From: an uncultured Actinomycetota bacterium | GTDB taxonomy: Bacteria; Actinomycetota; Actinomycetes; Propionibacteriales; Nocardioidaceae | Direction of reading: 5' to 3' | NCBI GenBank assembly: GCA_963795105.1 | Contig: CAWCGD010000001.1 | Location: 917,097 to 981,096 of the forward strand | Length of the DNA stretch: 64,000 nucleotides | Part shown: one piece after another, positions 38,020 through 56,072 of the stretch | Position numbering within the stretch: position 1 is the stretch's first letter | How the letters are laid out: the number at the start of each line of letters is the position of its first letter | Notes under the pieces: generated by a model | What the model was told of the DNA's origin: nothing | What the model saw: only the letters and a program-made list of their open reading frames with translations | The model's database searches: none | Translations under genes and position numbers: made by a program

Positions 38020-38254
38020 TTGCTCTCCTTCGCCCGTCAACGCGGAATCCGCGAGGAACGAGCTTCCAATTCTGTGCCGCACGGTGGGCGTGACTCGCGA
38101 GAGTTCACGCGTCAATGCGGAAGCCTGAGGTTTCTTTGGTCGCAACCTGCGATTCGTCTGCCCGCCGCGGTCAGCGTGTAAAGCGTCGCGGTCAGGGGAT
38201 GCATCACTGATTGACGCAAGTATCGCACAAGCTGCCAGCCGGACGCCCTTCGCT

Positions 38255-38977
38255 TCAGTCTCGTAGAGGGTCTCCCACGTTCGCATCACTGCCAGCTCCG
38301 CGCAGCGGTCCCTGCTGGAGCCGTTGCGCGACCGGCGAGCCGGGGTGCTCGAGTCCGTGCGCGCGCAGGCCAGTGACGATGTCGTCCGGCCGGACGGTGG
38401 GGATGGTGGATCGAACCACAGCCGTGACCGCTGAACCTTCGGAGGTCAGGTCGACGACGGCGCCGCGGACATCGATCGCGCGGAGCCCGCGCTTGGTCAT
38501 CCGTTCGACAGATACATCTTCGGCGGCCAAAAACGCAGCGACGGATGCTGCCACCTGGTCCGGGTCCGTGCCGGCCAGCTCGATGCGCCACGCGCTAGCC
38601 TCGAGACGGTCCGCCAGCGAGCCGGGAGCGGCAACCACCACATCGAGGATGTCGAGCCCCGCCGGCAATGCGTCGTCGAGCGCACGCAGTACTTCCTCCG
38701 CCGTTCGCGGCTCGGTGAGGCCAATCTCAAGAAACTCGGCCTCGCTTGCCGTGCCGGTGGGCGCCGCGTTCGCATAGGAAATCTTCGGATGAGGGCTGAA
38801 GCCGGAGGAGAACCCGATCGGAATCCCGGCCCGGCGCACGGCCCGTTCGAAGGCCCTCGCGAAGTCTCTGTGGCTGATGAACCGCAACCGCCCCCGCTTG
38901 GCGTAACGGACACGCAGCCTCTGAACGACGGGCAACTGCGGGTTCGGCGCTTCCGGGTTGGGAATCTGGGGATCCAT
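38255..38977 (-). CDS. TIGR03936 radical SAM-associated protein (DUF2344)
   Basis: RLRVRYAKRGRLRFISHRDFARAFERA.RRA.IP..FS.GFSPHPKISY. Confidence 0.92.
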   Translation of the reverse strand: MDPQIPNPEAPNPQLPVVQRLRVRYAKRGRLRFISHRDFARAFERAVRRAGIPIGFSSGFSPHPKISYANAAPTGTASEAEFLEIGLTEPRTAEEVLRALDDALPAGLDILDVVVAAPGSLADRLEASAWRIELAGTDPDQVAASVAAFLAAEDVSVERMTKRGLRAIDVRGAVVDLTSEGSAVTAVVRSTIPTVRPDDIVTGLRAHGLEHPGSPVAQRLQQGPLRGAGSDANVGDPLRD

Positions 38978-38999
38978 GGCTCGCCTAGTCTGACGCACT

Positions 39000-41144
39000 A
39001 TGGACGGCTCGAACCGCACGGTGCGGCTGGACATCCAGGCGCTTCGCGCAGCCGCCGTTGCCATGGTGGTCGTCTATCACCTCGCGCCGAACGTTCTGCC
39101 CGGCGGCTTCGTCGGCGTCGACGTCTTCTTTGTGATCTCCGGGTTCCTGATCACGACGCTGCTCATCGAGCGTCCGCCGACGAACGGGCCCCGAGAAATC
39201 GTGCACTGGCTACTCGAGTTCTGGTCGCGTCGGATCCGGCGCCTCCTGCCGGCCTCACTCCTCGTCCTGGCGGCCACGCTCGTCGCGACCCGGATCGTCC
39301 TTCCGCAGACCCAGTGGCAGGCCACCGCAGAGCAGGCCCGGGCGGCCGCCGTCTACATCGTGAACTGGGCACTCATCAGGGACGCGGTCGACTACCTCGC
39401 CGCCGAGCAGGCACCGACCGCCATCCAGCATTTCTGGTCGCTGGCTGTGGAGGAACAGTTCTACGTCGGCTGGCCGATCCTCATCCTGGCCCTGGCATTG
39501 GTGGCTCGCGGGCAGCGACGACGACTGGCTTTCACAGTCGGCATCGGTGTCGCGGTTGTCGCATCGTTCGCCTACTCCGTCCACCTGACCGGGACGAACC
39601 CCGCGGTCGCCTACTTCTCCACCGGCACTCGCATCTGGGAGCTCGGCGCCGGCGGTCTACTCGCGGTCGCCGCACCGGCGCTGGCCGGCCGGCTCGGCAG
39701 ACGCACGCCGCTTCTCGTCGCGACGACGGGGTGGCTGGCTATCGCGGTGACCGGCCTGCGCTACACCGACGCCACTCCCTTCCCCGGTTGGCAAGCCGCC
39801 CTGCCGATTGCCGGCACGCTGCTGGTCATCGCCGCGCACCGCGAGTTCCGATGGCAGGCGCTGCTGCCGGTGCACTGGCTCGGTGACGTGTCCTACTCGG
39901 TCTATCTGTGGCACTGGCCGCTGATCCTGCTGACTCCACCAGCCATCGCGATCGTCGCCGGCTCACCCGAGAGGGGTGCCCTGGACAACGCGGTCATCGT
40001 CGTCGCAACGCTCGTCTTGTCCGGCCTGTCGAAGGTCTACGTCGAGGATCGCTATCGGTACGGGCGGGTCAAGCCGACGGCGAAGGCTCAACGCCCGAAA
40101 CTACGCACGACGTACATATCCGCCGCGATCGGGATGGCAATGGTCGTCGCGCTCGCGTCGAGCCTGATCGCACTGGTGCATCACCAGCAGGCGGTCTACC
40201 GCGAGCAACTCGAGCACGCCCTGACGACCGCCGATCCGTGCCTGGGCGCGGGAGCGCTGAACCCGGCGCTCGACTGCCCGCCGCCCAAAGGCCCGCTGGT
40301 CCCGTCGCCGGCGTTGGCCGCCAAGGACTTCCCGGCTGCCTATAACGAGCAGGCCAACGGAGAGGATTGCCTGGCCCGCGCATCGGACTACCCCATCGTC
40401 ACCTGCCAGTACGGCGATCGTCGCGCCGGCTTCGAGGTCGCGCTCGTCGGTAACTCGCACGCTGCACACTGGGTGCCGACGCTCGACACCATCGCCAAGG
40501 ACCGGAACTGGCAGGTCACCACATATCTGGCGGCCAGTTGCAGCGGCGCCTACAACCTGACCGCGATGGCGACGATGTCCATTGCGCGACGCTGTATCGG
40601 ATGGGGAACTGACGTCGTCGCCCGTTTGCGCGCCGATCCGCCCGACCTGATCGTGTTCGCGACCCACATGGGTCGGTCCGCATGGGGCATCAACGGGATC
40701 GAGCGCAGCCTGCCCACCTTCGAAGACGGATTCCACCGGATGTTCGTCGACCTGGCCCGCGCGGAACGGCCGATCGTCGTCATTCGCGACACGCCTCAGG
40801 CCATCCACCACGGCGTCGACTCGATTCCGGACTGCGTCGCCGAACACCGCGGCGACCCGGAGAAGTGTGACGGACGGCGCGCGGCGTGGGAGATCGCCGA
40901 TCCCGCCGCCACCGCTGCTCGCGGGCTGCGTGCCCGGAACGTGGACATCACGGTGGCCGACCTCAACGACTACTTCTGCGACGAGAAGACCTGCTTCGCG
41001 GCCATCGGCGGCGTGATCGCCTACTTCGACGGCCACCACATCTCGGCGACCTACGCCCGTACCCTGGCGCCCTACCTCGACAAAGTGCTGACGTCGGCCG
41101 TGCTGACCGAGAGCGGAGTCAGGACGACGGGGCGACGACCGTGA
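39000..41144 (+). CDS. Acyltransferase-3 + SGNH O-acetyltransferase (OafA/OatA-like)
   Basis: DIQALRA.AV, GGFVGVDVFFVISGFLIT, HFWSLAVEEQFY, SYS.YLWHWP; C-terminal GNSH and D..H. Confidence 0.9.
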   Translation: MDGSNRTVRLDIQALRAAAVAMVVVYHLAPNVLPGGFVGVDVFFVISGFLITTLLIERPPTNGPREIVHWLLEFWSRRIRRLLPASLLVLAATLVATRIVLPQTQWQATAEQARAAAVYIVNWALIRDAVDYLAAEQAPTAIQHFWSLAVEEQFYVGWPILILALALVARGQRRRLAFTVGIGVAVVASFAYSVHLTGTNPAVAYFSTGTRIWELGAGGLLAVAAPALAGRLGRRTPLLVATTGWLAIAVTGLRYTDATPFPGWQAALPIAGTLLVIAAHREFRWQALLPVHWLGDVSYSVYLWHWPLILLTPPAIAIVAGSPERGALDNAVIVVATLVLSGLSKVYVEDRYRYGRVKPTAKAQRPKLRTTYISAAIGMAMVVALASSLIALVHHQQAVYREQLEHALTTADPCLGAGALNPALDCPPPKGPLVPSPALAAKDFPAAYNEQANGEDCLARASDYPIVTCQYGDRRAGFEVALVGNSHAAHWVPTLDTIAKDRNWQVTTYLAASCSGAYNLTAMATMSIARRCIGWGTDVVARLRADPPDLIVFATHMGRSAWGINGIERSLPTFEDGFHRMFVDLARAERPIVVIRDTPQAIHHGVDSIPDCVAEHRGDPEKCDGRRAAWEIADPAATAARGLRARNVDITVADLNDYFCDEKTCFAAIGGVIAYFDGHHISATYARTLAPYLDKVLTSAVLTESGVRTTGRRP

Positions 41145-42144
41145 TCAACCCGGCGTAGCGCGACACGTACTCGTCGTAGGCGAGCTTGATCCGCTTACGC
41201 CGATCGAGCAGCTCTTCGAAGGGCAACTCGACCGCGTAGATCGGGAACGCACCGGGCACGAGGTCAGCGAAGCTCGTCAGCACGGTCGAGTAGTTGCCGA
41301 CGATCGCGGCCGGCAGGATCCCCGCTTCGATCGGCACCAGCTCAGCCGGCACGTCGAACCGCACGACGGAGCACTCGGTCGACAAGGCGCGGAGTTTCGC
41401 CGCCGACTCGGCCCGGTGCGCCATGTAGAGCGGGGTGCTGTCGGGACGAACGGCACGGGCTGTCGCGATGAGCTCACGGGCGATCCGCAGCTCCAAGGCA
41501 TCGTCGGTGACGCCCACCCGGGTTAGTCCTTGCCCGACCACCAGCGTGACCGTCGCCGAGTGCGGCAGCCCGACGTACTGCCCCTTGACCCAGGCCCACG
41601 TATTGGTGTGGATGACGTCGCCGGGCGCGGATTGAAGCAGGTCCGGGTAGGCAGTGAAGAACGTGACGGCCGGCAACGGGAGGAACCCGCCCCGCTCCGC
41701 GTCCTGGGACCACGTCAGTGGTCGCACTCCCCCGTCCGTGCGGTCGATGAGCATGGTCATGTTGCCGTCGTCCAGGACGACCACGTCGTCACGGCCGCGC
41801 TCAAGGTCGCGGGCGAGCCGCCAACCCACGGTTTCGCGGTAGTCCCCGAGCACGAGCAGCGCGTCGGCCAGGCCTTCACCGCGGACGATGTCTGCCAATT
41901 CGCGGGCTACGTCTCCGGTTTTCTCGGTCGGATGGCCAAAGCCACCGCGCGGCCGGAAGCGGAAGGTGAACTCGCCCTCCAGCCGCGCCAGCGTGTTGAA
42001 CGTGGGCGTCAGCATGGCCGCATCCGGCAGCCGGTTGATGAGGACGAGGCCCGAGTCGATGCCGGCAACGCGTGCATACTCGAGCAGGCTCAGCGCCTGG
42101 AACGGCGATCCGATGAGCGCGACGGCCGACGTCGTCCCGGGCAT
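41119..42144 (-). CDS. Putative nonulosonate (sialyl-like) transferase
   Basis: SPFQ N-terminal motif, LDDG, MAHRAE, YSTVL; resembles the D/E-D/E-G plus H-x motifs of bacterial sialyltransferases; linked to leg genes. Confidence 0.5.
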   Translation of the reverse strand: MPGTTSAVALIGSPFQALSLLEYARVAGIDSGLVLINRLPDAAMLTPTFNTLARLEGEFTFRFRPRGGFGHPTEKTGDVARELADIVRGEGLADALLVLGDYRETVGWRLARDLERGRDDVVVLDDGNMTMLIDRTDGGVRPLTWSQDAERGGFLPLPAVTFFTAYPDLLQSAPGDVIHTNTWAWVKGQYVGLPHSATVTLVVGQGLTRVGVTDDALELRIARELIATARAVRPDSTPLYMAHRAESAAKLRALSTECSVVRFDVPAELVPIEAGILPAAIVGNYSTVLTSFADLVPGAFPIYAVELPFEELLDRRKRIKLAYDEYVSRYAGLITVVAPSS

Positions 42145-42147
42145 GCG

Positions 42148-42456
42148 TCAGTCGGCCGCGTCGGGCGTCTTGTCGAGGTCGCGCCCGGCGAGAGTCGCGT
42201 AGCGGTTCAGTGCGGCCAGGCCGGTTTCGATCTCCTGGTCGCGCATCGCATTGGCCAAGGCCTTCTGGCCGCGCTTGAGCGCCTGGAGACTCCGGTCCAT
42301 GCGGCTCTGCCGGAGACCGAGGACCACGAGGAACGCGACGAGCACAGCGGCCAGGGCCGCGCGGGCTACGGGTGTGTCGACATAGGCCAAGGCGGCGGCA
42401 ATCGCAGCGGCCACGACACCGACGGCGATCCACTTGCTGTTGCCTGACACATGCAC
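42148..42456 (-). CDS. Small hypothetical membrane protein
   Basis: Two N-terminal hydrophobic helices plus a short coiled-coil-like tail; 3 nt upstream of the putative transferase. Confidence 0.6.
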   Translation of the reverse strand: MHVSGNSKWIAVGVVAAAIAAALAYVDTPVARAALAAVLVAFLVVLGLRQSRMDRSLQALKRGQKALANAMRDQEIETGLAALNRYATLAGRDLDKTPDAAD

Positions 42457-42491
42457 AGCGTAGCCAAGTCAGCCCCGTAGGATCGTGTCCC

Positions 42492-43541
42492 ATGACGGAC
42501 GAGCACACGGCAAAACTCCCGGTCGTTGCCGCGTCGGCTTCCCTCCACGACGTCCTGAAGGCGATCGACGACGGCACCTGGGGCATCGCGTGCCTAGTCG
42601 ACGCCGATGGCGTCCTGCTGGGCGTGCTGACCGACGGCGACGTCCGTCGCGCCCTGATTGCCGGCCACCCGTTGTCCGATCCGGCGATCGACCACGCGTC
42701 CCGGCAGCCGCAGACTGTCGCGACCGGCACACCGCGTGCTCACGTGATCGACCTGATGAGCGCTCTCACGCTCGACGCCATCCCCGAGGTCGACGACCAG
42801 AATCGCGTCGTGCACGTGCACAGCCTGTCCCAGGTGGTCGGGCCCAAGACACTCCCCAATTCCGCCGTGATCATGGCCGGTGGCAAGGGGACCCGGCTCG
42901 GAAAGCTCACGAGTGAGACCCCAAAGCCGCTCATGACCGTTGCCGGACGCTCGATCCTGGAATGGATCATCCTGGGCCTGGTCGGCGACGGTATTCGGCA
43001 CATCTACGTCAGCGTCAATCACTTGGCCGACCAGATCGTCGACCACCTCGGTGACGGCTCACGGCTCGGCGTCACCGTGGAGTACCTGCACGAGGATCCC
43101 GACGTCCCGCTCGGTACCGGCGGTTCGCTGGCGCTCATCGAAAGCCGGCCCTCGGAGCCGCTGTTGGTCATCAACGGCGACCTGCTCGTCGAATTCGATG
43201 CCCGCGAGCTGCTGCGATTCCATGCCGAGCGCGAGGCGCGCATCACGATGGGCGTCCGCAGTTACATGCACACCGTGCCGTTCGGCGTCGTCGAGACCGA
43301 CGGTGACCGCGTCCAGGACATCGTGGAGAAGCCCGACCTCCAGGTGACGGTGAACGCCGCCGTGTACTGCATTGATCCTGACCTCATCGACTTGGTGCCG
43401 CGCGGCACGATGTCGCATGTCCCGGACCTCGTCCAGCAGTGCCTTGACACCGGTCAGAACGTTGTCGCTTGGCACATCACGTCTGATTGGATCGATGTCG
43501 GCACCCCAGCCGACTTGGCCCGCGCGAAGGGAATGACATGA
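42492..43541 (+). CDS. CBS-domain nucleotidyltransferase (PtmE/LegX-like)
   Basis: Two CBS repeats (GVLTDGDVRRAL) followed by IMAGGKGTRL..PKPL, GTGGSL, INGDL, WIDVG. Confidence 0.88.
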   Translation: MTDEHTAKLPVVAASASLHDVLKAIDDGTWGIACLVDADGVLLGVLTDGDVRRALIAGHPLSDPAIDHASRQPQTVATGTPRAHVIDLMSALTLDAIPEVDDQNRVVHVHSLSQVVGPKTLPNSAVIMAGGKGTRLGKLTSETPKPLMTVAGRSILEWIILGLVGDGIRHIYVSVNHLADQIVDHLGDGSRLGVTVEYLHEDPDVPLGTGGSLALIESRPSEPLLVINGDLLVEFDARELLRFHAEREARITMGVRSYMHTVPFGVVETDGDRVQDIVEKPDLQVTVNAAVYCIDPDLIDLVPRGTMSHVPDLVQQCLDTGQNVVAWHITSDWIDVGTPADLARAKGMT

Positions 43542-44566
43542 CCCTTACTGAGCAATTGGCGGGGCACCTGAGCGGCCAGACCGTCCTGGTCACCGGCTCT
43601 GACGGGTTCATCGGCAGCCACGTTGTCGAGACGCTGTTGGACCTCGGCGCCACGGTGCGCGCGTTCGCGCTCTACAACTCGTTCGGCTCGCTCGGCTGGC
43701 TCGACTCGTCCGATGTCTTCCAGAAGGCGGTCGACAGCGGCCAAGCCGAATTCGTCCTCGGCGACATTCGCGATGCCGAGCACGTGTCGCAGTCGGTCGA
43801 CGGCGTCGACATCGTCCTGCACCTGGCGGCCCTCATCGCCATCCCCTACTCGTACGTCGCACCGCGCTCGTACGTCGAGACCAACATCACCGGGACGCTC
43901 AACGTCCTCGAGGCAGTCCGCAAGCACGGCACCAAGCGTCTCGTCCACACGTCGACGTCGGAGGTGTACGGCACGCCGGAGACCGTGCCGATCACCGAGG
44001 ACAACGCCCTGCGCGGCCAGTCGCCGTACTCGGCGTCCAAGATCGGCGCGGACAAGATGGCCGAGTCGTACGCCCTGTCGTTCGAGACGCCTGTCACCGT
44101 GCTGCGCCCGTTCAACACCTTCGGCCCGCGGCAGTCCACGCGCGCGGTGATTCCGACTGTGCTCTCCCAGCTGCTGGCCGGGGCACCCGAGCTGCGCCTC
44201 GGGTCGCTGCATCCCAAGCGTGACTTCACCTTCGTCACCGACACAGCGCTCGGCTTCGCCCGCGCCGCCATCACCGACCTCGAGCCCGGCACCACCGTGC
44301 AGCTCGGCACCGGGCGCACCGTCTCGGTCGGCGACATCGTCGACCTGGCACGGAAGATCACCGGAAACAATGCCGAGGTCATAACCGAAGACCAGCGCAT
44401 CCGCCCGGACGCCTCCGAGGTCGAGATCCTGCTGTCGGATCCGTCCAAGGCGAAGGATCTCCTCGGCTGGGAGCCGCAGATCGACCTCGAGACCGGCCTG
44501 CAGCGCACTGCGGACTTCATCCGGGAATCCGGCGACCTCAGCGGCGCGCACCGCTACCACCAATGA
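43538..44566 (+). CDS. legB: NAD-dependent 4,6-dehydratase, LegB type
   Basis: TGSDGFIGSH, YNSFGSLGWLD, LAALIAIPYSYVAP, TSTSEVYG, QSPYSASK, FNTFGPRQS.RAVIPT. Confidence 0.85.
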   Translation: MTLTEQLAGHLSGQTVLVTGSDGFIGSHVVETLLDLGATVRAFALYNSFGSLGWLDSSDVFQKAVDSGQAEFVLGDIRDAEHVSQSVDGVDIVLHLAALIAIPYSYVAPRSYVETNITGTLNVLEAVRKHGTKRLVHTSTSEVYGTPETVPITEDNALRGQSPYSASKIGADKMAESYALSFETPVTVLRPFNTFGPRQSTRAVIPTVLSQLLAGAPELRLGSLHPKRDFTFVTDTALGFARAAITDLEPGTTVQLGTGRTVSVGDIVDLARKITGNNAEVITEDQRIRPDASEVEILLSDPSKAKDLLGWEPQIDLETGLQRTADFIRESGDLSGAHRYHQ

Positions 44567-45756
44567 CGACTCCCCCAGAAATGCGAACTGGCGAGACCCA
44601 CGCCCCCGGGGCACCCGCGGCCGCCGGGGACATCCCGCTGGCCGTACCCAACGTGAGCGCCGCCGAGCGCGACGCCGTGCTTGCCGCGATCGACTCCGGC
44701 TTCGTCTCCTCCGTGGGCCCGGCGGTCAGCGAGTTCGAGGCCGAGTTCGCCGCGCTCGTCGGGTCGCGTCACGCGGTCGCAACGGCCAGCGGCACCGCCG
44801 CTCTGCACGTCGCCATGCGACTGGCCGGCGTCGAGCCGGGCGACGAGGTGTTCGTCTCCGACTTCACGTTCATCGGGTCGTCCAACCCCGTCGCCTACCA
44901 AGGCGCCAAGATCACGCTCGTCGATTCCGAGGCGGAGTCGTGGAACATGGATCCCGCTGTGCTGGAATCCGAGTTGGCCCGCCGCGAGGAGGCCGGCGAG
45001 ACCCAGCCGAAGGCGATCGAACTCGTTCACGTGTTGGGACAGCCAGCCGCCGGACACCGGATCGCTGACATCGCGGCGCGCTACGGCGTCATGCTCATCG
45101 AAGACGCTGCGGAGAGCCTCGGGGCGGGCTGGGTCGATGAGGACGGAACATTCACGAGCACTGGCACGCTGGGCCAGATCGGCGCGTTCTCATTCAACGG
45201 CAACAAGATCGTGACGGCCGGTGGCGGCGGCATGATCGTCACCGACGACGACGCCCTCGCGGCCCGCGCACGGCACCTGACTACCCAGGCCAAGGTGCCC
45301 GACGTCGGCTACCTGCACGACGAGGTCGGCTACAACTACCGCCTGACGAACCTCGCGGCCGCGTTCGGCTTGGCGCAGCTGCGCCGGCTGCCCGAGTTCG
45401 TCGCGGCCAAGACGGCGATTGCGCAGCGCTACAACGATGCGTTCGCGGACCTGCCGATCACGCGGCCGCCGCGCATCGAGGGCGCGCTCTCGACCTACTG
45501 GCTCTACTCGGTCCTGCTGGACAACGAGGCTCAGCGTGACTCGGTGCTGGATTTCCTGCACGAGCGTGGCATCAGGGCGCGCTCCGTGTGGCGGCCGTTG
45601 CACCTGCAGCCGCCCCTGCGTGATGCCGCCGTTCTCGGTGGCGCGGTGGCCGAGAGCCTGTTCCAGCGTGGGTTGTCGCTGCCGTGCTCGACCGACCTCA
45701 CCGAGTCCGATCAGGACCGGGTGATCGAGGCCGTCCGGGCCGCCGTGAATCCCTGA
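44563..45756 (+). CDS. legC: PLP-dependent aminotransferase, LegC type
   Basis: FVSSVG, SGTAALH, EDAAESLG, SFNGNKIVT.GGGG, TTQAK, HDEVGYNYRLTN. Confidence 0.85.
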   Translation: MTTPPEMRTGETHAPGAPAAAGDIPLAVPNVSAAERDAVLAAIDSGFVSSVGPAVSEFEAEFAALVGSRHAVATASGTAALHVAMRLAGVEPGDEVFVSDFTFIGSSNPVAYQGAKITLVDSEAESWNMDPAVLESELARREEAGETQPKAIELVHVLGQPAAGHRIADIAARYGVMLIEDAAESLGAGWVDEDGTFTSTGTLGQIGAFSFNGNKIVTAGGGGMIVTDDDALAARARHLTTQAKVPDVGYLHDEVGYNYRLTNLAAAFGLAQLRRLPEFVAAKTAIAQRYNDAFADLPITRPPRIEGALSTYWLYSVLLDNEAQRDSVLDFLHERGIRARSVWRPLHLQPPLRDAAVLGGAVAESLFQRGLSLPCSTDLTESDQDRVIEAVRAAVNP

Positions 45757-45777
45757 CGTTTGGGCTCCACAACGCAG

Positions 45778-46224
45778 TCACCCTCGCGGCGGAAGCGTCT
45801 CTTCCACAGCAGCGATCCATGCATCAGGATCAGAGGGCTGGATGGCGAACGATCCGCGGTGGGTCTCGATGACGGCATGCGCCTTGCCGTTGCGGTAATG
45901 ACCATTCCATCGCAACTGCTGACTCACCTGCAAGATTTCGCGAAGAGGGACCTCGAACCCGCGAACGGCGAGCCGACGCACGACCAACCGATCGCGGGTG
46001 AGCGCCACGGCGACAAAGCCGCGGGCGCGCGGGTAAGGGCCGCCCGTCGCCCCTTGATAGTGGACCCGTTCCGGCCCAAGCACGATCGGCGTCCCGCGCA
46101 ACTCATCACCGAGCTTCGTTGTCAGTCGCCGCAGGGCACGCATGACGGAGAACCAGATCACTCCTTGAACCACGCCGATGACCGCCAGAAGAATTGCGAC
46201 AAAGAGTGCCGTAGCCATGGTCAA
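45778..46224 (-). CDS. Hypothetical membrane-anchored protein
   Basis: N-terminal TM helix plus beta-rich domain; convergent with legC. Confidence 0.6.
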   Translation of the reverse strand: MTMATALFVAILLAVIGVVQGVIWFSVMRALRRLTTKLGDELRGTPIVLGPERVHYQGATGGPYPRARGFVAVALTRDRLVVRRLAVRGFEVPLREILQVSQQLRWNGHYRNGKAHAVIETHRGSFAIQPSDPDAWIAAVEETLPPRG

Positions 46225-46349
46225 ACGCTACGCGGACGTTGCCCTCCAGACGTTCGGCTTCATGGGAGGCACTACTGCGCAACCGAAAGGCGGCCATGCT
46301 TGCCGCGGTTAGCGCGCCCGCTACGGAGCCTGAGGTAAAGGGAACCGTC

Positions 46350-47570
46350 TCACACAGTTGGGCGGGCCGGGGATCGGTCTCGGCCCAGCAGCGGGTTGAG
46401 CATCCACAGCCCGATCACCGGCCCAAGCGCCAGCCAAGGCAGCACTTGTGCCAGCGGCCACACAGCTGCAGCTCGCACGAACAGTTCGATGCTCACGACC
46501 GAGATGGCGAAGCCGATGCAGTTGCTGACGGTCAGCACGCTGCCCACCACTGCAGGCGGCGCGTTCTGCGCGGTGAGGGTGGAGAACTGGGGCGAGTCGC
46601 CGGAGACGGTGGCGCCCCAAAGCAGCATCCAAGCGATGAATAGTGGCAGCGGAGCCACCAGCATCAGCGGTGCCGCGAGGCAGCAGATGCCGCTGGTGGC
46701 CAGCTGAAGTTGCGCCACGCGCGCGCTGCCCAAGCGCTGTGCAGCCAGCCCCCCGACCACGCAGCCAATGAAGCCGGCGCCGATCACCCAGAACGCCACC
46801 CCACTGACGGCGCCGGCGGCGAGGCGCGACCCCAGCACCACCGGGACCAGCACGATCATCGCGTATAGCTCCCACATGTGACCGAAGTAGCCGAACACGG
46901 ACGCGCGGACCCTCACGTCAGACCAGATGAGGCCGAGGGCGCGCGGAGTGACGCGGGCGCCAGCCGGTGGACCGGGATGGGATGGCACTAGGAGTGCCGT
47001 GGCCAGCCCGCCGAGCACAGCCAGCACGGATACCGAGATCACCACCGCCTGCCACGGCGCGAGGCTGCCGAACGATAGGGCGGTGCTGTGCGTCCCGCCG
47101 ACCAAGGCGCGGAGGCCGTGAGGCAGCGCTGTTCCCAGTACGAGCGCGCCGATCAGGACGCCCATGGCCGCACCGAGCCCCTCGCGGTACCAGCTGGCAG
47201 CGATCTTCATCCCCACCGGGTAGATGCCGGCGAGCATGAAGCCGACAGCGAAGCGCACGACGAGCAGGATTCCGAGGCGGCCGTCGACGACCAGGATGGC
47301 CAAGTTCAGCAGTGCGCCCAGCACCGAACAGGCCAGGAAGACCAGCGTGGGCGGGAATCGGTCGGACAGCATGAGCAGTGCGAACACCAACGTGCCCGCG
47401 ACGAAGCCGAGTTGGACCGCAGACGTCAGTGTCCCAAGCGCCGCGTCCGGAAAATCCCAGCGCTGCTGCAGGTCCGGCATGACGGCGTTGACGGCGAACC
47501 ACAGCGAGGTGCCGGCGAACTGAGACAGGACAATCACCGGCAGGATGCGACGGGGCACGCGCGTCGGCAT
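46350..47570 (-). CDS. MFS transporter
   Basis: LSQFAGTSLWF, LTSAVQLGF, GIYPVGMKIAASW, GHMWELYA, DSPQFS; about 12 TM segments; ATG at 47570. Confidence 0.88.
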   Translation of the reverse strand: MPTRVPRRILPVIVLSQFAGTSLWFAVNAVMPDLQQRWDFPDAALGTLTSAVQLGFVAGTLVFALLMLSDRFPPTLVFLACSVLGALLNLAILVVDGRLGILLVVRFAVGFMLAGIYPVGMKIAASWYREGLGAAMGVLIGALVLGTALPHGLRALVGGTHSTALSFGSLAPWQAVVISVSVLAVLGGLATALLVPSHPGPPAGARVTPRALGLIWSDVRVRASVFGYFGHMWELYAMIVLVPVVLGSRLAAGAVSGVAFWVIGAGFIGCVVGGLAAQRLGSARVAQLQLATSGICCLAAPLMLVAPLPLFIAWMLLWGATVSGDSPQFSTLTAQNAPPAVVGSVLTVSNCIGFAISVVSIELFVRAAAVWPLAQVLPWLALGPVIGLWMLNPLLGRDRSPARPTV

Positions 47571-47742
47571 CGGAACAGCGTATGCCCCCCGTTGGCGGTC
47601 GCCACGCAATCCAAGGCAGCGGGCCAAGCCGAACTGAGATTGCGAACTGACCAGTCATGGGGACGTTCGTCGGCTGACTTGCTGGTTCGATGGTCCCAAA
47701 TCGAGCGAACTTGCGGCAATCAGTGCGACCGCCGAGTTCCGG

Positions 47743-49107
47743 TTAGGGACGGATGTTCTGGTTGTGCCGGAATAGGTTGTGCGGGTCGTAGGCCCGCTTG
47801 ACGTCCACGAGCCGCGTGTAGTTGCTGCCGTACGTGTCGGAAACGCGGCCTTGGTCATCGTCGGACATGAAGTTGACGTATCCGCCCGCCTCAGAGTGGG
47901 GGGTGAGCGCGTCGGAGTATCCGCGGACCCAGGCAATGTTGTCGGCGTCGTCAGACTCGTCCGGCCACGCGGAGACGATGACAGTCGAAAACGTCGCGTG
48001 GCGGTACGAGAACGCGGTGTCGGTGGCACCAACGCGGGCGGCGGCACCATTGATCGGGTAAAGATGCATCGTCGAGCTGGGGTTTGGCGCCTTCGGGCCG
48101 TGGGCCAGATGCACGTCAATGGCCGCATCCGTCAACTCGGTGACGTAGTTGCCCTTCCAGTAACTCCGGACACCTCGCGGAAACAGCTCGTCGAACGCGC
48201 TGTTGAGCCATGGGTACGGCATGGGCTCGACCAGTTCGCCTACCCGCGGGGCAAGGTCGCGGAACGGCTGCATAGCCGCCTCGCCCTCCTCGATCGGTCC
48301 GCTCCACTGGACGATCGCAGCGCAGAACGTGTCGCCATGGCGGTCCTCCGGCAGGAACGGCAACGGCGGCGCCACTTGGAATGCCGGGAACGCACCGTAG
48401 CGCTCGTCGGCGTCCGTGATCCACGTGCGGAAGAAGCGAAGCAAGTCCCCAGCGTGCTCCAGCTCGTAGAAGAAGAGCCCGACAACCACCTGGTCCACAG
48501 GGTGAAGGTCGAACTCAAATGAGGTGACGACGCCGAAGTTGCCGCTGCCGCCGCGAAGCGCCCAGAAAAGGTCGGCGTTCTCCTCCGCACTGGCTCGACG
48601 GATCTGTCCGTCGGCCGTGACCACGTCGGCCGACCGGAGGTTGTCGATCGACAGCCCGAGGCCGCGCGTGAGGTAGCCGATGCCGCCACCCAGGGTCAAG
48701 CCTCCAACGCCGGTGGTCGAGACGATGCCCCCGGGCATCGCCAGCCCGTATGCGTGAGTCGCGTAGTTGAGATCGCCGAGGGTCGCGCCGCCACCGACCC
48801 GTGCGGTGCGGGCCGTCGGGTCGACGTGCACGAAGCGCATCGGCGACAGGTCTATTACCAGGCCGTCGTCGATCGTCCCGAAACCTGGTGCGCTGTGACC
48901 CCCACCGCGCACCGCGAGCTCCAAGCCCTCGTCGCGGGCGAAGTTCACAGCGGCAACGACGTCGGCGACTTGTTCGGCCTGCACGATCACGGCCGGTCGC
49001 CGGTCAATCATTCCGTTCCAGACGGATCGCGCGATGTCGTAGTCGTCATCCTCGGGCGTAACGACCCGCGCGCGCACTTGCTCACGAAACTCAATCATGG
49101 ATGTCAT
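47743..49107 (-). CDS. FAD-binding oxidoreductase, berberine-bridge-enzyme-like
   Basis: RP..IV, RGGGHS (covalent-FAD His), GVGGLTLGGG, LFWALRGG.GNFGVVT, YVNF, KRAYDP.NLF. Confidence 0.92.
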   Translation of the reverse strand: MTSMIEFREQVRARVVTPEDDDYDIARSVWNGMIDRRPAVIVQAEQVADVVAAVNFARDEGLELAVRGGGHSAPGFGTIDDGLVIDLSPMRFVHVDPTARTARVGGGATLGDLNYATHAYGLAMPGGIVSTTGVGGLTLGGGIGYLTRGLGLSIDNLRSADVVTADGQIRRASAEENADLFWALRGGSGNFGVVTSFEFDLHPVDQVVVGLFFYELEHAGDLLRFFRTWITDADERYGAFPAFQVAPPLPFLPEDRHGDTFCAAIVQWSGPIEEGEAAMQPFRDLAPRVGELVEPMPYPWLNSAFDELFPRGVRSYWKGNYVTELTDAAIDVHLAHGPKAPNPSSTMHLYPINGAAARVGATDTAFSYRHATFSTVIVSAWPDESDDADNIAWVRGYSDALTPHSEAGGYVNFMSDDDQGRVSDTYGSNYTRLVDVKRAYDPHNLFRHNQNIRP

Positions 49108-49359
49108 GTCGTCACCTGTCGCCCTCGCAGAGTCATCGTTTCAGGCAGCGTATCCGCTCTAAAAGGTCTTGCCGGCTGGTTCGCGGGCACGGCAGCAAGG
49201 TTCCTTGAGCCCGTTATTGGGAGGCGACGTCGCGAACCTGCTGCGGGAGCCAGGAGTCACTCATATGGTCGAACCGACCGGAGCGTCTGCGATGGTAGCT
49301 ACAGACACCCATCCTCGGCACTACCGCGGGGACTTCCACCACCGACGGAGACAAGAGAA

Positions 49360-49725
49360 ATGGCCACATCAATTGATTCCATGCCGGTTGAGCTCGATGC
49401 GGGAGAGTTGCAGACTCGCTACCTCGAACTTGGGGACATGGCTATTCGTCATGTGAGTGTTCCCGCTGGAGCTGATATGTCCGTGCTCTTGGCGGGTCTT
49501 CCCAATGACAGGTGTCCCAGCCCGCACTGGGGAATGATCCTAGAAGGCTCCATCCATTTGACCCATGGAGATGGGTCGACAGAGACAGCGCGGGCGGGTG
49601 AGGTCTATCACTGGGCCGCCGGTCATACCGGGACGACCGACGAGGCCTGCGTGTTCATCGAAGTCGGTCCCGTGGCCGAGATGCGCCAATTCGGGGAGAA
49701 CGCCAAGCGCGTACTCGCGGGCTAA
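49360..49725 (+). CDS. Small cupin-like protein
   Basis: C.SPHWG.ILEG.I..THGDG.TE...AGEVYHW.AGH pattern; purine-rich RBS before the ATG. Confidence 0.65.
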   Translation: MATSIDSMPVELDAGELQTRYLELGDMAIRHVSVPAGADMSVLLAGLPNDRCPSPHWGMILEGSIHLTHGDGSTETARAGEVYHWAAGHTGTTDEACVFIEVGPVAEMRQFGENAKRVLAG

Positions 49726-49818
49726 CCGCCCCGGCTTTCGGCGCTCGGACACGTGCGAACCCGCCGCCGTTTGTGTGCAGGGGCGGGCCCGGATTGTCAC
49801 CTCCGGACGGCTAACTCG

Positions 49819-50637
49819 TTACATCCGGCGATACCGGACCTGCAACATTGCGAACAGGCCGAATGCCACGAATCCAAAAGCCATCGCACTGAGCATCCAG
49901 CTTCCAAATGGCTGCTCAAGGACCGTCTGCAAGGCTCCGTCCAGCCCCGACGCCTTCTGCCAGTCAAAAGTCCACGCTGCATAACTGAGCAGACCACCCA
50001 CCATTCCGAGAGCTATGCCCTTCGTGACGTATCCGACCTGACCTAGATGTAGCACGCCTTCTTGGCCCGCTGAGGACAGGGACGAGGTATCGATCTCCTC
50101 GATGAACGATTTTCGCAAGCCCTTGATTGCCACTGTTAGGCCGACGCTGATGATGATGAGTCCGGTGACGATGACGATCGTCCGCCCACCGGGCCACGCC
50201 AGCACTCCGATGGTGGCTTCTTGCTGGGACTGCGAGCTTGCCGCTTTGTAACCAGCCGCGACCAACGCTGACCGGACCCCGAGCCCGATGTAAATCACGG
50301 CCCAGAGTCCGCTATTGGCCCGTTTGCGCACCCGCTCGGTACCTTCTAGGTTGCGATGGCCCCAGACCAGGTCGGTTGCCTTCCAGATGCCCAGCGCCAC
50401 CAAGCCCAGTGCGATCAACCACAGCAAGACATTGCCCAAGGGCTGGTCGGCCAACGTCCGGAACGCCCCTGACGGGTCAGGTCTCGCACTGGGGCCAGCG
50501 CCCCACGCCAGCTGAAGCGCCAACCCACCGATCAGCAGGTAAACCACGCCGTACGCAACCAAACCCGCGCGAGCGAGCGCCTTCAGCGCAGCGCTGTCTC
50601 CAACCTGTTCGGCCCAAGTCCCGCCGCCAGCTGCCAT
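49819..50637 (-). CDS. DUF1206 family membrane protein
   Basis: Three repeats: LARAGLVAYGVVY / ..GLGV / LGQVGYVTKG, plus GLDGAL..L..QPFG..L. Confidence 0.8.
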   Translation of the reverse strand: MAAGGGTWAEQVGDSAALKALARAGLVAYGVVYLLIGGLALQLAWGAGPSARPDPSGAFRTLADQPLGNVLLWLIALGLVALGIWKATDLVWGHRNLEGTERVRKRANSGLWAVIYIGLGVRSALVAAGYKAASSQSQQEATIGVLAWPGGRTIVIVTGLIIISVGLTVAIKGLRKSFIEEIDTSSLSSAGQEGVLHLGQVGYVTKGIALGMVGGLLSYAAWTFDWQKASGLDGALQTVLEQPFGSWMLSAMAFGFVAFGLFAMLQVRYRRM

Positions 50638-50784
50638 CCCACGCTCCAAGCTCCACCTGAACACGTCCGCGCCCAATGGCACACCGGTGTGATTACCCAA
50701 CCTGACTTAGTTGACGTGCGGACCGCTCTCACCGGGCTAACCTGCCGCCATCAATGCAGGGCGGCGAGTCCCGCGACCTTCACC

Positions 50785-51924
50785 TCAGCGCACGTCGACG
50801 AACGGCTTCGCTCGCGGCGGAGCCTCGCCCAAGACGGCCGCTGCAATGCGTCGCCCGGCTGTTCCATCGCCGTACGGGTTGACGATGTTGGTCGCCTGAG
50901 CGCGAAATTCGGCGCTGAGTGCCGTGTGGAGCGCGGCGCTGACCGTCTCGAGTCCTTCTGCGGTGGCCACCACGTTGGCCCCGCGCAAACGCCCGCGTTG
51001 GCGGTCGCCGATGTCGACCACGGGCACCCCGACGCTGGCGGCCTCGATGACGCCGGACGACGAGTTGCCGACCACGACGTCGCTGGCGGCGAGCACTGCT
51101 GGGTACCGGGGGCCGAGTGCCTCGACCACCACCACGTTGTCGTGCGCCGCGTAGGCCTCGATGAGGACATCGAGAATCTCGTCGCGCCCGACGTCGTAGC
51201 CGGGATGGGTGGCGATCACGGTGCCGCAGGCATCGACGGTGGCCGTGAGCGCGTCCGCGGCCCACTGCCTGATCTGTGCTGCCGGCACCGTCGTCGGCGG
51301 GTGGTACGTGAAGAGCGCCAACGGCCGGGTCACGGGATGGCCCACGAGGTCGGCCAATGCGTCGTCGTCGAGCGGCTCGATCCCGGCGAACCGGTCGAGC
51401 CCCGGGGCTCCGGTGACGTGGATGCGGTCGGCTGGCTCGCCGAGTTGCCGCACGCGTTCGGCGGCATCCTCTGACGCGACGCAGTGCACGTCGGCGAGCT
51501 TCGTGATGGCGTGCCGGACCCGCTCGTCGATGGCGCCCTCAGTTACCTCGCCGCCGTGCAAGTGCACGATCGGGACGCCGGACAGGAAGAACCCTGGGAC
51601 GACGGACAGCAGTTCCCAGCGGTCGCCGAGTACCACGAGTCGATCGAAACTCTCGCGGGCGAGAAGGCCCTGCAATGCGTCGGCGATGACGGCCGCCTGC
51701 TTCAGTTGGCTTTGCGCATCGAGGACCTCGACCGGTGGAGCGAGCGCCAAGACGGCCGGGTGAGCGTCGCCGAACGCCGTCCGCAGCACCGCGGTGAGCG
51801 TTGCCTCGTCGAACGCCACGCCAGTCAGGACGACGGTCTGCGCTCCGGCGTCCACCAACCCATGGAGCACCGGGAGCAGCGGGCCGAGATCAGCCCTGGT
51901 CCCGACGAATACGGCAACCTTCAC
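50785..51924 (-). CDS. neuC: Hydrolysing UDP/GDP-GlcNAc-type 2-epimerase (NeuC/LegG)
   Basis: VGTRADLG, LGDRWE, HLHGGE.T.GAIDERVRHAITKLA, GNSSSG..EA, IGDRQRGR, NPYGDG. Confidence 0.9.
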   Translation of the reverse strand: MKVAVFVGTRADLGPLLPVLHGLVDAGAQTVVLTGVAFDEATLTAVLRTAFGDAHPAVLALAPPVEVLDAQSQLKQAAVIADALQGLLARESFDRLVVLGDRWELLSVVPGFFLSGVPIVHLHGGEVTEGAIDERVRHAITKLADVHCVASEDAAERVRQLGEPADRIHVTGAPGLDRFAGIEPLDDDALADLVGHPVTRPLALFTYHPPTTVPAAQIRQWAADALTATVDACGTVIATHPGYDVGRDEILDVLIEAYAAHDNVVVVEALGPRYPAVLAASDVVVGNSSSGVIEAASVGVPVVDIGDRQRGRLRGANVVATAEGLETVSAALHTALSAEFRAQATNIVNPYGDGTAGRRIAAAVLGEAPPRAKPFVDVR

Positions 51925-52919
51925 GGCAGTTCCACATCGGCCGAGGTGATGGGATCGCCGGCGGCGACCGGCCGCACGACGCGGGCGCCGGTGAGCATCA
52001 CAACCGGCGTGATGCCCAGCTCGGGTCGCAGCGCCACGGCGTCGGAATCCGCCACGGTGTCGCCCGCCGCGAGGTCACGAGTCGCGTGCCAAGAACGCCG
52101 CACGACGGGCGCGTTCTCCATCTCAGCCGGCATCCGCCTCTTCACGCCGTCGCCGAGCGACGCGGCAGTATCACGGACAGCCACGATGTACGCGGCGAGC
52201 TCGGCCGGCTCCGCACTGGCCGCGTGATCTGGGCCGGGCAGCGTCTTGTCGGTGGTGAAGTGCTTCTCCAAGACGGTGGCCCCGAGCGCTACGGCCGCGA
52301 TCGCCGACGTCGACCCGACAGTGTGGTCGGACCAGCCGACCGGCACACCGTGGGCCTCGCGCATCGCCGGGATGGCGCGCAGGTTCGCCTGGTCGATCGG
52401 AGCGGGGTAGGACGAGACGCAGTGGAACAGGGTCAGCGACGGTGCGCCGGCGCAAGCCTCCACGGCTGCGGCGACCTCGGCCGCGTCACCCATGCCGGTT
52501 GAGACGAGCAGCGGGACCTCCATCGAGGCGAGCGCGCGCAAAAAGGGCAGATTGGTCAGTTCGCCGGAGGACACCTTGAGCGCCGAGACGCCGAGGTCGA
52601 CCAGCATCCGAGCGCTGTCGAGGTCGAACGGCGTGCTGAAGAAAGTGATACCCGCTTCACGCGCATGGTCGCGCAGCCCGATCCATGCCGACTCCGGCAA
52701 CGTCAGCGAACTGAGCAGTTCCGACTGGTCGGCCAGGCCCGAGCGGTCGGCCTGGTAGGCGGCCGTCCTCGCGTGCGACGACGTGAGCTTCGACGGCTCG
52801 AACGTCTGGAACTTCACCGCATCGGCGCCCGCCTCGACGGCGACGTCGATGAGCGTATGCGCCAGATCCTCGTCACCGTTGTGATTGACACCGGCCTCGG
52901 CGATGACGGTCAGCGTCAT
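51921..52919 (-). CDS. neuB: Nonulosonate synthase (NeuB/LegI) with C-terminal SAF domain
   Basis: IAEAGVNHNGD, DAVKFQTF, FSTPFD, KVSSGELTN, STGM, HCVSSYP, GWSDHT, EKHFT, GPDH.AS. Confidence 0.95.
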   Translation of the reverse strand: MTLTVIAEAGVNHNGDEDLAHTLIDVAVEAGADAVKFQTFEPSKLTSSHARTAAYQADRSGLADQSELLSSLTLPESAWIGLRDHAREAGITFFSTPFDLDSARMLVDLGVSALKVSSGELTNLPFLRALASMEVPLLVSTGMGDAAEVAAAVEACAGAPSLTLFHCVSSYPAPIDQANLRAIPAMREAHGVPVGWSDHTVGSTSAIAAVALGATVLEKHFTTDKTLPGPDHAASAEPAELAAYIVAVRDTAASLGDGVKRRMPAEMENAPVVRRSWHATRDLAAGDTVADSDAVALRPELGITPVVMLTGARVVRPVAAGDPITSADVELP

Positions 52920-53545
52920 GAAGTCTCCCCGGCGGGTGCGGATTTGACGACCCGTGCCGGCTGGCCGACGACCGTGACGCCAGGCGCGACATCCTCGGTG
53001 ACGACGGCACCGGCACCGACCACGGCGCCAGCTCCGACCGTCCGGCCCGGCAGGACCCGTGCGCCAGAGCCGATAAAAGCGCGCACACCGATGTGGCAGC
53101 CACCCAGAACGGCGGTGCCGGGCCCGACGTGAGCGCCGTCGCCGACGACGACATCGTGTTCAACGATGGCGCCGGTGTTGATGATCACTGCGCGGCCGAG
53201 GCGAGCCCCTGGGCCGACGTGAGCATGGTGCAGCACGACGGTCCCCGCGCCGAGCTCGGCGTCAACGGCGACGGTGGCTGTTCGCGCCGCTGCGCTGAAC
53301 CGGACGTCCTCGGGCAGGCTCTCGACGAGGGCGAGCCGTATCCGGTTCGACCCGACGTTGGCAAGCACCTTCCACCCGTGCGTCTGGGCGGCTTTGATCG
53401 CGTCGTCGTCCGTTGCGAAGTGCTCAACGCCCCAGTTCCGCGACGACTCGCCAACCACTCCGGCCAGCTCGGCAACGTCGCGCAAAGCATCCACGACGCT
53501 CGCCGCGTGACCGCCGGCACCCAGCGACACCCACGAGTCCGGCAT
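52916..53545 (-). CDS. neuD: Hexapeptide-repeat acetyltransferase (NeuD/PglD/LegH type)
   Basis: GAGGHA.V, INTGAIVEHD, left-handed beta-helix repeats, GQPAR. Confidence 0.85.
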   Translation of the reverse strand: MPDSWVSLGAGGHAASVVDALRDVAELAGVVGESSRNWGVEHFATDDDAIKAAQTHGWKVLANVGSNRIRLALVESLPEDVRFSAAARTATVAVDAELGAGTVVLHHAHVGPGARLGRAVIINTGAIVEHDVVVGDGAHVGPGTAVLGGCHIGVRAFIGSGARVLPGRTVGAGAVVGAGAVVTEDVAPGVTVVGQPARVVKSAPAGETS

Positions 53546-55543: not shown

Positions 55544-55948
55544 CTAAAGCGAAGGGAACCAGAGGGTGATCTCGCGGCCCGCCGACTCGGGGGCGTCGGA
55601 GGCATGGACGAGGTTCTCCCGGTTGGACAGGCCGAAGTCGCCGCGGATGGTGCCCGGCGCGGCCGTGCGGCCGTCGGTGGCACCGTTCATCGCGCGTACG
55701 ACCTCGATCGCCTCGTCGCCCTCGAGCACGAGCGCCACGAGCGGCCCGGACGTCGCGAAGGCGCGCAGTGGCGGGTACCAGGTCTGCTCGACGTGGTCGC
55801 GGTAGTGCGCATCGGCCATTTCGGCATCGATCGAGCGGTGCTCCATCGCGACGATCGACAGGCCCTTCTCCTCGAAGCGGGTCAGGATCCGGCCGACGAG
55901 GCCGCGACGCACGGCGTCCGGCTTGATGAGGACAAGAGTTCTTTCCAC
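55544..55948 (-). CDS. ndk: Nucleoside diphosphate kinase
   Basis: ERTLVLIKPDAV.RGLVG, PGTIRGDFG, NLVHASD. Confidence 0.98.
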   Translation of the reverse strand: MERTLVLIKPDAVRRGLVGRILTRFEEKGLSIVAMEHRSIDAEMADAHYRDHVEQTWYPPLRAFATSGPLVALVLEGDEAIEVVRAMNGATDGRTAAPGTIRGDFGLSNRENLVHASDAPESAGREITLWFPSL

Positions 55949-55988
55949 GGACCGAGGTTACCGAGTGCCCAAACCGCGTGCGGTTCGA

Positions 55989-56028: not shown

Positions 56029-56072
56029 CGTGGCCGATGGTCTGTTGACGAGCGACGCGAGGAAAACGGAGG

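Follow-up and report, generated by a model that had tools for sequence, protein, structure and literature searches.

A putative GDP-linked legionaminic acid pathway, split between two loci, in an uncultured actinobacterium of the Nocardioidaceae

Background

Legionaminic acid (Leg) is best known from the surfaces of pathogens such as Legionella, Campylobacter and Acinetobacter. Genes resembling those for its synthesis occur in a 64,000-base stretch of DNA (hereafter the window; assembly GCA_963795105.1, contig CAWCGD010000001.1, positions 917,097 to 981,096) from an uncultured actinobacterium of the Nocardioidaceae, and an initial annotation, made from the sequence alone, proposed that the organism makes a sugar of the Leg family for a wall polymer or a glycoprotein, with the genes scattered over three blocks. 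Does this genome hold a complete route to the activated sugar, on which carrier nucleotide would that route run, and what would the sugar be used for? The window proteins were scanned for families with Pfam and NCBIfam, solved relatives were identified via the PDB, and best matches were compared with curated cut-offs.

Results and Discussion

Leg core genes

We consider it likely that the core genes of a complete CMP-Leg pathway, GDP-linked as in Campylobacter and acquired horizontally, lie in the window, accompanied by probable users of the sugar. The six core genes lie in a 14.5-kb island (39.0-53.55 kb) that fills a variable slot between two housekeeping genes, which encode a DUF2344 protein and a radical S-adenosylmethionine (rSAM) protein:

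38255-39064, minus strand: DUF2344 housekeeping gene, the left border of the island (Pfam PF10105, 174 bits)
39000-41144, plus strand: AT3-SGNH acyltransferase (Pfam Acyl_transf_3 and SGNH)
41119-42144, minus strand: P0001, an orphan GT-B protein of 341 amino acids (aa), without a Pfam or NCBIfam match
42148-42456, minus strand: small membrane protein with a hydrophobic translation, 3 bases from P0001
42492-43541, plus strand: PtmE type (Pfam CBS pair and NTP_transferase)
43535-44566, plus strand: LegB type, NDP-GlcNAc 4,6-dehydratase, ATG start at 43535 (TIGR04180, 421.5 bits)
44563-45756, plus strand: LegC type, pyridoxal phosphate-dependent aminotransferase (TIGR04181, 379.4 bits)
46350-47627, minus strand: major facilitator superfamily (MFS) transporter (Pfam), part of a 5-kb insert
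47743-49107, minus strand: flavin adenine dinucleotide (FAD)/BBE oxidase (Pfam), part of the insert
49819-50700, minus strand: DUF1206 protein (Pfam), part of the insert
50785-51924, minus strand: LegG, NeuC-type hydrolysing 2-epimerase (TIGR03568, 273.6 bits)
51921-52919, minus strand: LegI, NeuB-type nonulosonate synthase (Pfam NeuB and SAF; TIGR03569, 355 bits)
52916-53545, minus strand: LegH, NeuD/PglD-type N-acetyltransferase (TIGR03570, 156.8 bits; PglD_N and Hexapep)
53565-55511, minus strand: TIGR03960 rSAM housekeeping gene, the right border of the island (NCBIfam, 687 bits)

The initial annotation had placed PtmE-like, LegB and LegC genes at 42492-45756 and NeuD-, NeuB- and NeuC-type genes at 50785-53545; both groups stand at these coordinates, the former with best matches to Leg families. 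All six frames are open, each protein matches the full length of its model or Pfam domains, and neighboring Leg genes overlap by 4-7 bases (7 bases for ptmE/legB), as coupled operons do. The best matches of the LegB and LegC types, TIGR04180 and TIGR04181, are scored below cut-offs of 475 and 420 bits, and the same proteins reach 74 and 265 bits on the PseB and PseC models. The NeuC type lies above its curated cut-off (235.9 bits), and its best PDB match (5xvs, 171 bits) is the hydrolysing GDP/UDP-N,N'-diacetylbacillosamine 2-epimerase, i.e., LegG. The NeuD type has a cut-off of 160.8 bits. The NeuB type reaches 246 bits on the PseI model, and its best PDB match is SpsE, which is needed for Leg synthesis in Bacillus subtilis (PMC7439481). 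A pseudaminic acid (Pse) pathway (PseB, PseC, PseH, PseG and PseI types) was not recognized among these window genes, which score far lower on Pse models. The PtmE-type protein is probably a guanylyltransferase, judging from its best NCBIfam and PDB matches, which are mannose-1-phosphate guanylyltransferases; this and the presence of GDP-perosamine synthases among the best PDB matches of LegC fit a GDP-linked route.

From these identities we infer a route in which PtmE would make a GDP-hexosamine, leading to GDP-GlcNAc, LegB would carry out the C4/C6 dehydration, LegC would add an amino group at C4, LegH (NeuD type) would acetylate that C4 amine, LegG (NeuC type) would release the nucleotide and epimerise C2, and LegI (NeuB type) would condense the product with phosphoenolpyruvate, giving 5,7-diacetamido legionaminic acid (Leg5Ac7Ac) or a close variant.

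A NeuB-family tree was reconstructed from 67 sequences with four PDB-derived anchors, SiaC being the sole anchor for N-acetylneuraminic acid (Neu5Ac). The window NeuB and the one of Nocardioides sp. Soil796 (72% identical) are sisters inside an actinobacterial clade (98% support in the Shimodaira-Hasegawa-like approximate likelihood ratio test, SH-aLRT). The branch that sets the NeuB/LegI group, to which this clade belongs, apart from the Pse type has an SH-aLRT support of 100%. NeuB phylogeny, which the initial annotation had named as a check, thus agrees with the model scores in placing the protein outside the Pse clade; with a single Neu5Ac anchor, it does not separate Leg from Neu synthases.

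Conserved synteny in related loci

The decisive evidence for the Leg assignment is, in our reading, synteny. The closest NeuB relatives in species-representative genomes (63-68% identical) belong to Oryzobacter terrae, Gryllotalpicola daejeonensis and four metagenome-assembled genomes (MAGs) of Actinomycetota. In O. terrae, G. daejeonensis and MAGs L008 and L009, NeuD-NeuB-NeuC-PtmE-LegB-LegC form a single collinear operon, and MAG loci L012 and L014 hold four of the six genes in the same order. Given this six-gene operon in relatives, the NeuB type would have to use the product of LegB, LegC, LegH and LegG, a Leg precursor, and not N-acetylmannosamine. This synteny, the LegG match, the likeness to GDP-sugar enzymes, the non-Pse type of NeuB and the presence of CMP-synthetase genes in the genome give good support to the proposal of a Leg-family nonulosonate for a surface glycan.

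The nearest version of the Leg genes (59-80% identity) is that of Nocardioides sp. Soil796 (GCA_001429525.1, LMSQ01000018.1), in which they form two convergent operons, with the ends of LegC and NeuC 4 bases apart. Its locus also contains a stand-alone CMP-synthetase, and identities between window and locus range from 51 to 80% overall (68% for ptmE, 80% for LegB). Like the window, it combines the convergent operons with genes of the AT3-SGNH type and the P0001 family and with a small gene; unlike the window, it is compact (11 kb), carries the CMP-synthetase between ptmE and the AT3-SGNH gene, is without the 5-kb insert and lies outside the rne-ndk backbone. The Soil796 Leg locus is annotated, and we found no study of it in the literature.

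A distant ptmF-legF-ptmA triad

The initial annotation had noted that no LegF is visible in the window and had pointed to legF and ptmF as genes to be found elsewhere. The former is literally true, and no CMP-synthetase is left in the 14.5-kb island, but a cytidylyltransferase domain lies just past the window edge (see below) and a canonical legF lies 1.52 Mb away. The genome was searched with the Leg-linked CMP-synthetases of Soil796, Gryllotalpicola and Arsukibacterium, and a LegF-type gene, 36-39% identical to these, was found at C1:2499047-2499724 (C1 is the contig of the window). CMP-synthetase genes are therefore present in the genome, including one of the LegF type. It stands within a run of GFO_IDH_MocA, CTP_transf_3 and SDR (short-chain dehydrogenase/reductase) genes at C1:2498271-2500716, which is the canonical ptmF-legF-ptmA order. 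O. terrae has these three genes immediately upstream of its Leg operon and on the other strand (35-39% identical to the triad of this genome), and the Leg/Maf cluster of the gammaproteobacterium Arsukibacterium likewise holds them (32-38%). This NeuA-type LegF, with its PtmF- and PtmA-like neighbors, would activate the sugar to its CMP form.

On the basis of gene identity and order, the genome is predicted to hold the full nine-gene Leg set (PMC4481668) at two loci 1.52 Mb apart. The Leg cluster of Plesiomonas, Vibrio and Campylobacter has the same gene set (PMC4481668, Table 5), and the GDP-linked CMP-Leg systems of Campylobacter jejuni/coli, Plesiomonas shigelloides, Vibrio fischeri and the Escherichia coli elg locus (PMC4481668) share PtmE, LegB, LegC, LegH, LegG, LegI, LegF, PtmF and PtmA as well as the ptmF-legF-ptmA order. 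Identity to a gammaproteobacterial Leg cluster is no higher than 32-42%. In contrast to Campylobacter-type clusters, the genes here occupy two loci, with convergent operons and a 5-kb insert, and are without a Maf transferase and without flagellin. Neither of the two Leg loci showed a dedicated PgmL or GlmU gene, the rest of the genome not having been searched for them.

Among 24 genomes of other species of the genus, no orthologue of this LegF was found; eight of the 24 encode a different NeuA beside a third type of NeuB. This third NeuB-like type is 37-40% identical to PseI and has a NeuA-type synthetase 1.4 kb away (e.g., G017:C1:3780098-3782165). It occurs, without LegB, in at least seven other species of the genus (genomes G005, G007, G010, G011, G016, G017 and G019), and represents a different nonulosonate system within the genus.

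Beside the triad (L103, C1:2489001-2508000) are genes for a 363-aa protein (8210-9301, minus strand) and an 860-aa protein (5621-8203, plus strand), both without a Pfam match, and a polysaccharide deacetylase gene transcribed in the opposite direction (11716-12660, plus strand). These three may serve in tailoring the Leg glycan or in its transfer.

Candidate genes for use of the sugar

P0001 (41119-42144), with which the range of the initial annotation began, is without a Pfam or NCBIfam match and proved to be a conserved companion of Leg genes. Its family comprises 24 members, from metagenomes and Soil796, and among the loci examined it occurs only beside Leg genes, which it adjoins in Soil796 (51% identical to P0001) and in L066, a metagenome contig from a close relative (contig_82659 in ENA, 1500-11500). 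An AlphaFold model with a predicted local distance difference test score (pLDDT) of 86.7 and a predicted template modelling score (pTM) of 0.86 has two Rossmann-like domains, and its best PDB fold match is a polysialyltransferase with bound CDP (5wcn; E 1.5e-9, TM-score 0.58/0.53), with the lipooligosaccharide sialyltransferase of Neisseria (2yk6) further down the list. D125-D126-G127 and H243-R244 are invariant in the family and recall the D/E-D/E-G and H-P motifs of bacterial sialyltransferases. P0001 thus resembles the glycosyltransferase family 38 (GT38) polysialyltransferase of Mannheimia haemolytica (5wcn) and the GT52 enzyme (2yk6) in its GT-B fold, with DDG after an N-domain strand and His after a C-domain strand, and in lying at a CMP-nonulosonate locus. 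It differs from them in its H-R in place of H-P, its length of 341 aa, its identity of 10-12% and its lack of a Pfam or PDB sequence match.

A profile search retrieved 859 remote relatives of P0001, some of which are fused to GT2 or GT4 domains, and one remote relative reaches the polysialyltransferase model PF07388 at 25 bits. The family profile found no match among PDB sequences, even at E 10, and none in Pse clusters or in the Oryzobacter and Gryllotalpicola loci. The predicted fold and the location make P0001 a candidate for a transferase or polymerase of legionaminic acid. Leg-specific transferases are an enzyme class that was called unreported in a 2020 paper on Leg synthesis in Bacillus (PMC7439481).

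Both neighbors of P0001 have counterparts in Soil796. The AT3-SGNH gene inside its Leg locus is 53% identical to that of the window, and a small gene in the same position as the small membrane protein shows weak similarity (45% over 44 aa). P0001 and its small membrane partner would probably transfer or polymerise Leg onto a wall glycan, which the AT3-SGNH protein, to judge from its domains, probably O-acylates outside the membrane. Lag-1 of Legionella pneumophila is an AT3-family enzyme as well. It 8-O-acetylates the Leg homopolymer that forms the serogroup 1 O-antigen (PMC3766260), so that the Legionella O-antigen locus and the window both pair Leg synthesis genes with a dedicated O-acyltransferase. 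Legionella, however, is Gram-negative and carries the polymer on lipopolysaccharide, whereas the present host is an actinobacterium in which a polymer is only hypothetical.

With regard to the acceptor, no flagellin gene was found in the genome, which excludes flagellin glycosylation, and the absence of a Maf transferase likewise argues that the acceptor is not the flagellum. A wall glycan is the likely acceptor. Nonulosonate wall glycopolymers of Propionibacteriales-type actinobacteria are known as teichulosonic acids, and this genome also carries a full Pse cluster. Within the former Nocardioidaceae, such wall polymers, which contain 2-keto-3-deoxynononic acid (Kdn) or Pse, have been reported only from Kribbella (PMC6113628). 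For actinobacterial walls we found reports of Kdn- and Pse-containing polymers only, and in the literature searched, which omits many chemistry journals, there was no report of a Leg-containing teichulosonic acid or of Leg in connection with Nocardioides.

The cassette at the window end and the Pse clusters

The initial annotation had counted a PtmA-like SDR and an aldo-keto reductase (AKR) at the right end of the window as a third block of the Leg route. Beyond the island, the annotated features are:

left of rne: proA, proB, obg and ribosomal protein genes, in that order (housekeeping)
35767-38289, minus strand: rne (housekeeping)
55544-55957, minus strand: ndk (family scan)
56417-57943, minus strand: folC (family scan)
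57697-60336, plus strand: valS (family scan)
60346-61875, plus strand: secreted 509-aa protein without a family match, starting 10 bases after valS
61872-62336, minus strand: VanZ family gene (family scan)
62371-63135, minus strand: SDR partner of the fusion cassette (Pfam adh_short_C2)
63123-64000, gene running to ~64685, minus strand: AKR domain of a cytidylyltransferase-AKR fusion (Pfam Aldo_ket_red)

The supposed AKR forms the C-terminal part of a 520-aa CTP_transf_3-AKR fusion, whose gene runs ~685 bases past the window, to C1:981781, and starts 22 bases after clpX (Pfam CTP_transf_3 and Aldo_ket_red on L006:1220-3043). At its N-terminus the fusion protein carries an SpsF/PseF-like cytidylyltransferase domain, which contains the motif ARMGSSRLPGK. 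The fusion family is large: the best 120 matches all have both domains, and their NCBI name is just 'aldo/keto reductase'. In a Nocardioidaceae MAG, Kribbella sp. NBC_01245 and Luteipulveratus halotolerans, the fusion in each case precedes an SDR, which is 67, 54 and 53% identical to that of the window, respectively, and the pair lies among Pse-type genes (PseB-like, 50%; PseC-like, 42%; PseG-like; in the MAG also PseI-like, 52%). The window SDR is only 27% identical to canonical PtmA, and the canonical PtmF belongs to the GFO/IDH/MocA proteins rather than to the AKRs. These comparisons indicate that the window SDR is not a PtmA orthologue, and that SDR and fusion form a separate cassette, found elsewhere in Pse-type clusters.

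The three-block layout thus stands only in part: there are two convergent Leg operons split by a 5-kb insert, but the third block is a Pse-type cassette, and the real remainder of the pathway is the distant triad. Because it lies at the edge of the window and none of the 24 same-genus genomes has it, the fusion gene was for a time considered as the missing LegF; this was revised once its orthologues were seen in Pse-type clusters and the canonical legF triad was found. The valS-clpX gap contains a 4.4-kb insertion here (secreted protein, VanZ, SDR and fusion), compared to 55 bases to 1.3 kb in other species.

A canonical, complete Pse cluster lies at C1:1346600-1354250 and comprises PseI, PseB, PseC, a PseF-like protein, a 703-aa protein and a PseG-PseH fusion. 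A variant Pse cluster, without a PseF gene, occupies ~9500-20400 of contig C3 (22290 bases); between the two, PseI, PseB and PseC are 88-90% identical, the 703-aa gene 79% and PseG-PseH 66%. The C3 cluster may reflect heterogeneity among strains in the assembly or may be a genuine second copy, and in the latter case the cytidylyltransferase-AKR fusion might serve it.

Origin and layout of the island

The DUF2344-rSAM gap measures 14.5 kb here. In five genomes from other species of the genus it is 1.5-4.9 kb, without any of the island genes. The rSAM gene is 83-87% identical in other species, and NeuD begins 20 bases past the rSAM stop codon, which makes the insertion a tight one. A search of 38-56 kb for repeats, inverted repeats, promoters and terminators revealed no insertion sequence, integrase or repeats at the island borders, only chance-level GC-rich matches, and the region (~67% G+C) is without a compositional break. 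As part of the reading that we consider likely, the pathway would have been horizontally acquired, since LegB, the fusion gene and the LegF orthologue are each absent from all 24 same-genus genomes and the island fills the DUF2344/rSAM slot.

A second island, diverged in sequence, is carried by L066, in which Leg genes lie at the same DUF2344 site. Its flanks are 94% (rne), 91% (proB) and 86% (DUF2344) identical to those of the window, whereas the island genes are only 47-56% identical, so that the slot looks like a variable surface-glycan site. The L066 island includes a FemAB-like acyltransferase and a methyltransferase, is without an AT3-SGNH gene, and lies on a contig with many frameshifts.

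The scattered layout is secondary and results from gene rearrangement. An ancestral single locus would have had ptmF-legF-ptmA divergent from legH-legI-legG-ptmE-legB-legC, as in O. terrae; it would have been inverted to two convergent operons and then split by the 5-kb insert, with the legF triad lost to another site. A single inversion within this genome was dropped as the cause because Soil796 is already convergent, which leaves the insert and the loss of legF from the island as the genome-specific changes.

The insert (46350-50700), which splits the convergent operons, encodes the MFS transporter, the FAD/BBE oxidase and the DUF1206 protein, families from which a pathway role is not evident. 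No orthologue of the oxidase was found in the 15 same-genus genomes searched (best match 44%). Two large same-order genomes (G026:C1:4925899-4937145 and G030:C1:530958-541529) have a BBE oxidase paralogue, 46-49% identical, ~9-10 kb from PseI, and oxidases of this type may recur near nonulosonate loci. An open reading frame of 192 codons after legC (45760-46338, plus strand) was treated as non-coding, its translation being Arg-rich, of low complexity and without a family match. On the other strand, hairpins that resemble terminators lie at 46306-46290 and 46211-46197. To the right of the island, the ndk-folC gap is 460 bases (55957-56417), compared to ~8 kb in three other-species genomes of the genus; the wide gap elsewhere fits gene loss in this smaller (2.7 Mb) genome.

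Alternative interpretations

Several observations weigh against a complete Leg pathway with its own sugar-using genes. LegB, LegC, LegI and LegH all fall under NCBI curated cut-offs, and are best matches rather than certified equivalogs. The tree leaves Leg and Neu5Ac synthases unseparated, with SiaC on a long branch in the same 17-row group. There are three CMP-synthetase candidates (the LegF type, PseF and the fusion), and only the synteny in relatives points to one of them as the Leg activator. P0001 deviates from sialyltransferases in carrying H-R instead of H-P, its fold match has a TM-score of only 0.53-0.58, and no exporter, priming transferase or LCP ligase was found in the island. It should also be noted that the genome is seemingly a metagenome assembly (93% complete, 3% contamination), with a variant Pse cluster on a 22-kb contig. 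Four other explanations were considered.

1. The product is a 5,7-diamino nonulosonate other than Leg5Ac7Ac. Sequence cannot fix stereochemistry, and with core enzymes under equivalog cut-offs the product could be 4-epi- or 8-epi-legionaminic acid, acinetaminic acid or another N-acyl form, tailored by the PtmF-like protein, the SDRs, the AKR or genes near legF. Spare redox enzymes are indeed tied to nonulosonate genes here (the fusion with its SDR, and the PtmF-like and SDR pair), the deacetylase and the 363-aa gene lie beside legF, and the L066 island adds its acyltransferase and methyltransferase. We nevertheless regard such a product as unlikely, because the genes and their order are those of the canonical Leg set (PMC4481668) and the Leg island itself showed no additional gene of the epimerase type.

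2. The intermediates of the route are UDP-linked, with another role for PtmE. UDP-linked Leg routes exist in Legionella and B. subtilis (PMC7439481; PMC3766260), the solved LegG relative is annotated for both GDP and UDP substrates, and the best solved relative of LegB is the UDP-sugar enzyme Pal. This explanation appears rather improbable given that ptmE and legB are translationally coupled, that none of the related actinobacterial loci (the collinear loci and Soil796) lacks ptmE and that its product is nearest to guanylyltransferases. The closeness of LegC to GDP-perosamine synthases and the fit of LegB to the GDP-type TIGR04180 over the PseB/FnlA type also speak for the GDP-linked route.

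3. The split island is a decaying remnant, silent or non-functional. The operon has been broken up and legF lost from the island; yet every frame is open and full-length against its model or Pfam domains, the 4-7 base overlaps persist, and the companion genes are intact as well, and we consider decay very unlikely.

4. A reading without Leg, in which NeuD-NeuB-NeuC make Neu5Ac and PtmE-LegB-LegC separately make a bacillosamine-type hexose, draws on the physical separation of the operons here, on a best NeuB model named N-acetylneuraminate synthase and on the tree, but is hardly tenable against the shared operon context of these genes in six related loci (four with all six genes, two with four), the match of the NeuC type to LegG when no Neisseria SiaA-type epimerase in the PDB reaches E 1e-10, and the N-terminal PglD domain of 4-amino-sugar acetyltransferases in the NeuD type.

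Conclusions

Leg-type pathways are common in environmental genomes, and the find is accordingly useful rather than surprising. Less ordinary, as candidates, are a model-less family of putative Leg transferases and the conserved trio of AT3-SGNH, small protein and GT-B protein; to judge from the gene content, so are a small genome with two predicted nonulosonate pathways and three CMP-synthetases, and a variable glycan slot in a conserved housekeeping backbone. The breakup of a surface-sugar operon among housekeeping genes with each gene intact cautions against judging pathway completeness from a single window. A complete Leg route in a soil actinobacterium amounts to a concrete prediction of wall chemistry, with a conserved trio that probably uses the sugar and with P0001 as a tractable candidate for a Leg-specific transferase.

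More tentatively, and with the odds still against it, the P0001 family may be an unrecognized family of small, cytoplasmic Leg transferases or polymerases that, with its small membrane partner and AT3-SGNH, would build an O-acylated (poly)legionaminic wall polymer in Nocardioidaceae-type actinobacteria, and the DUF2344/rSAM slot may be a swappable surface-glycan locus in the genus, as the contrast between flanks and island in L066 suggests. If true, such a polymer would parallel the Legionella O-antigen in a Gram-positive host and would add a third chemical class to the teichulosonic acids.

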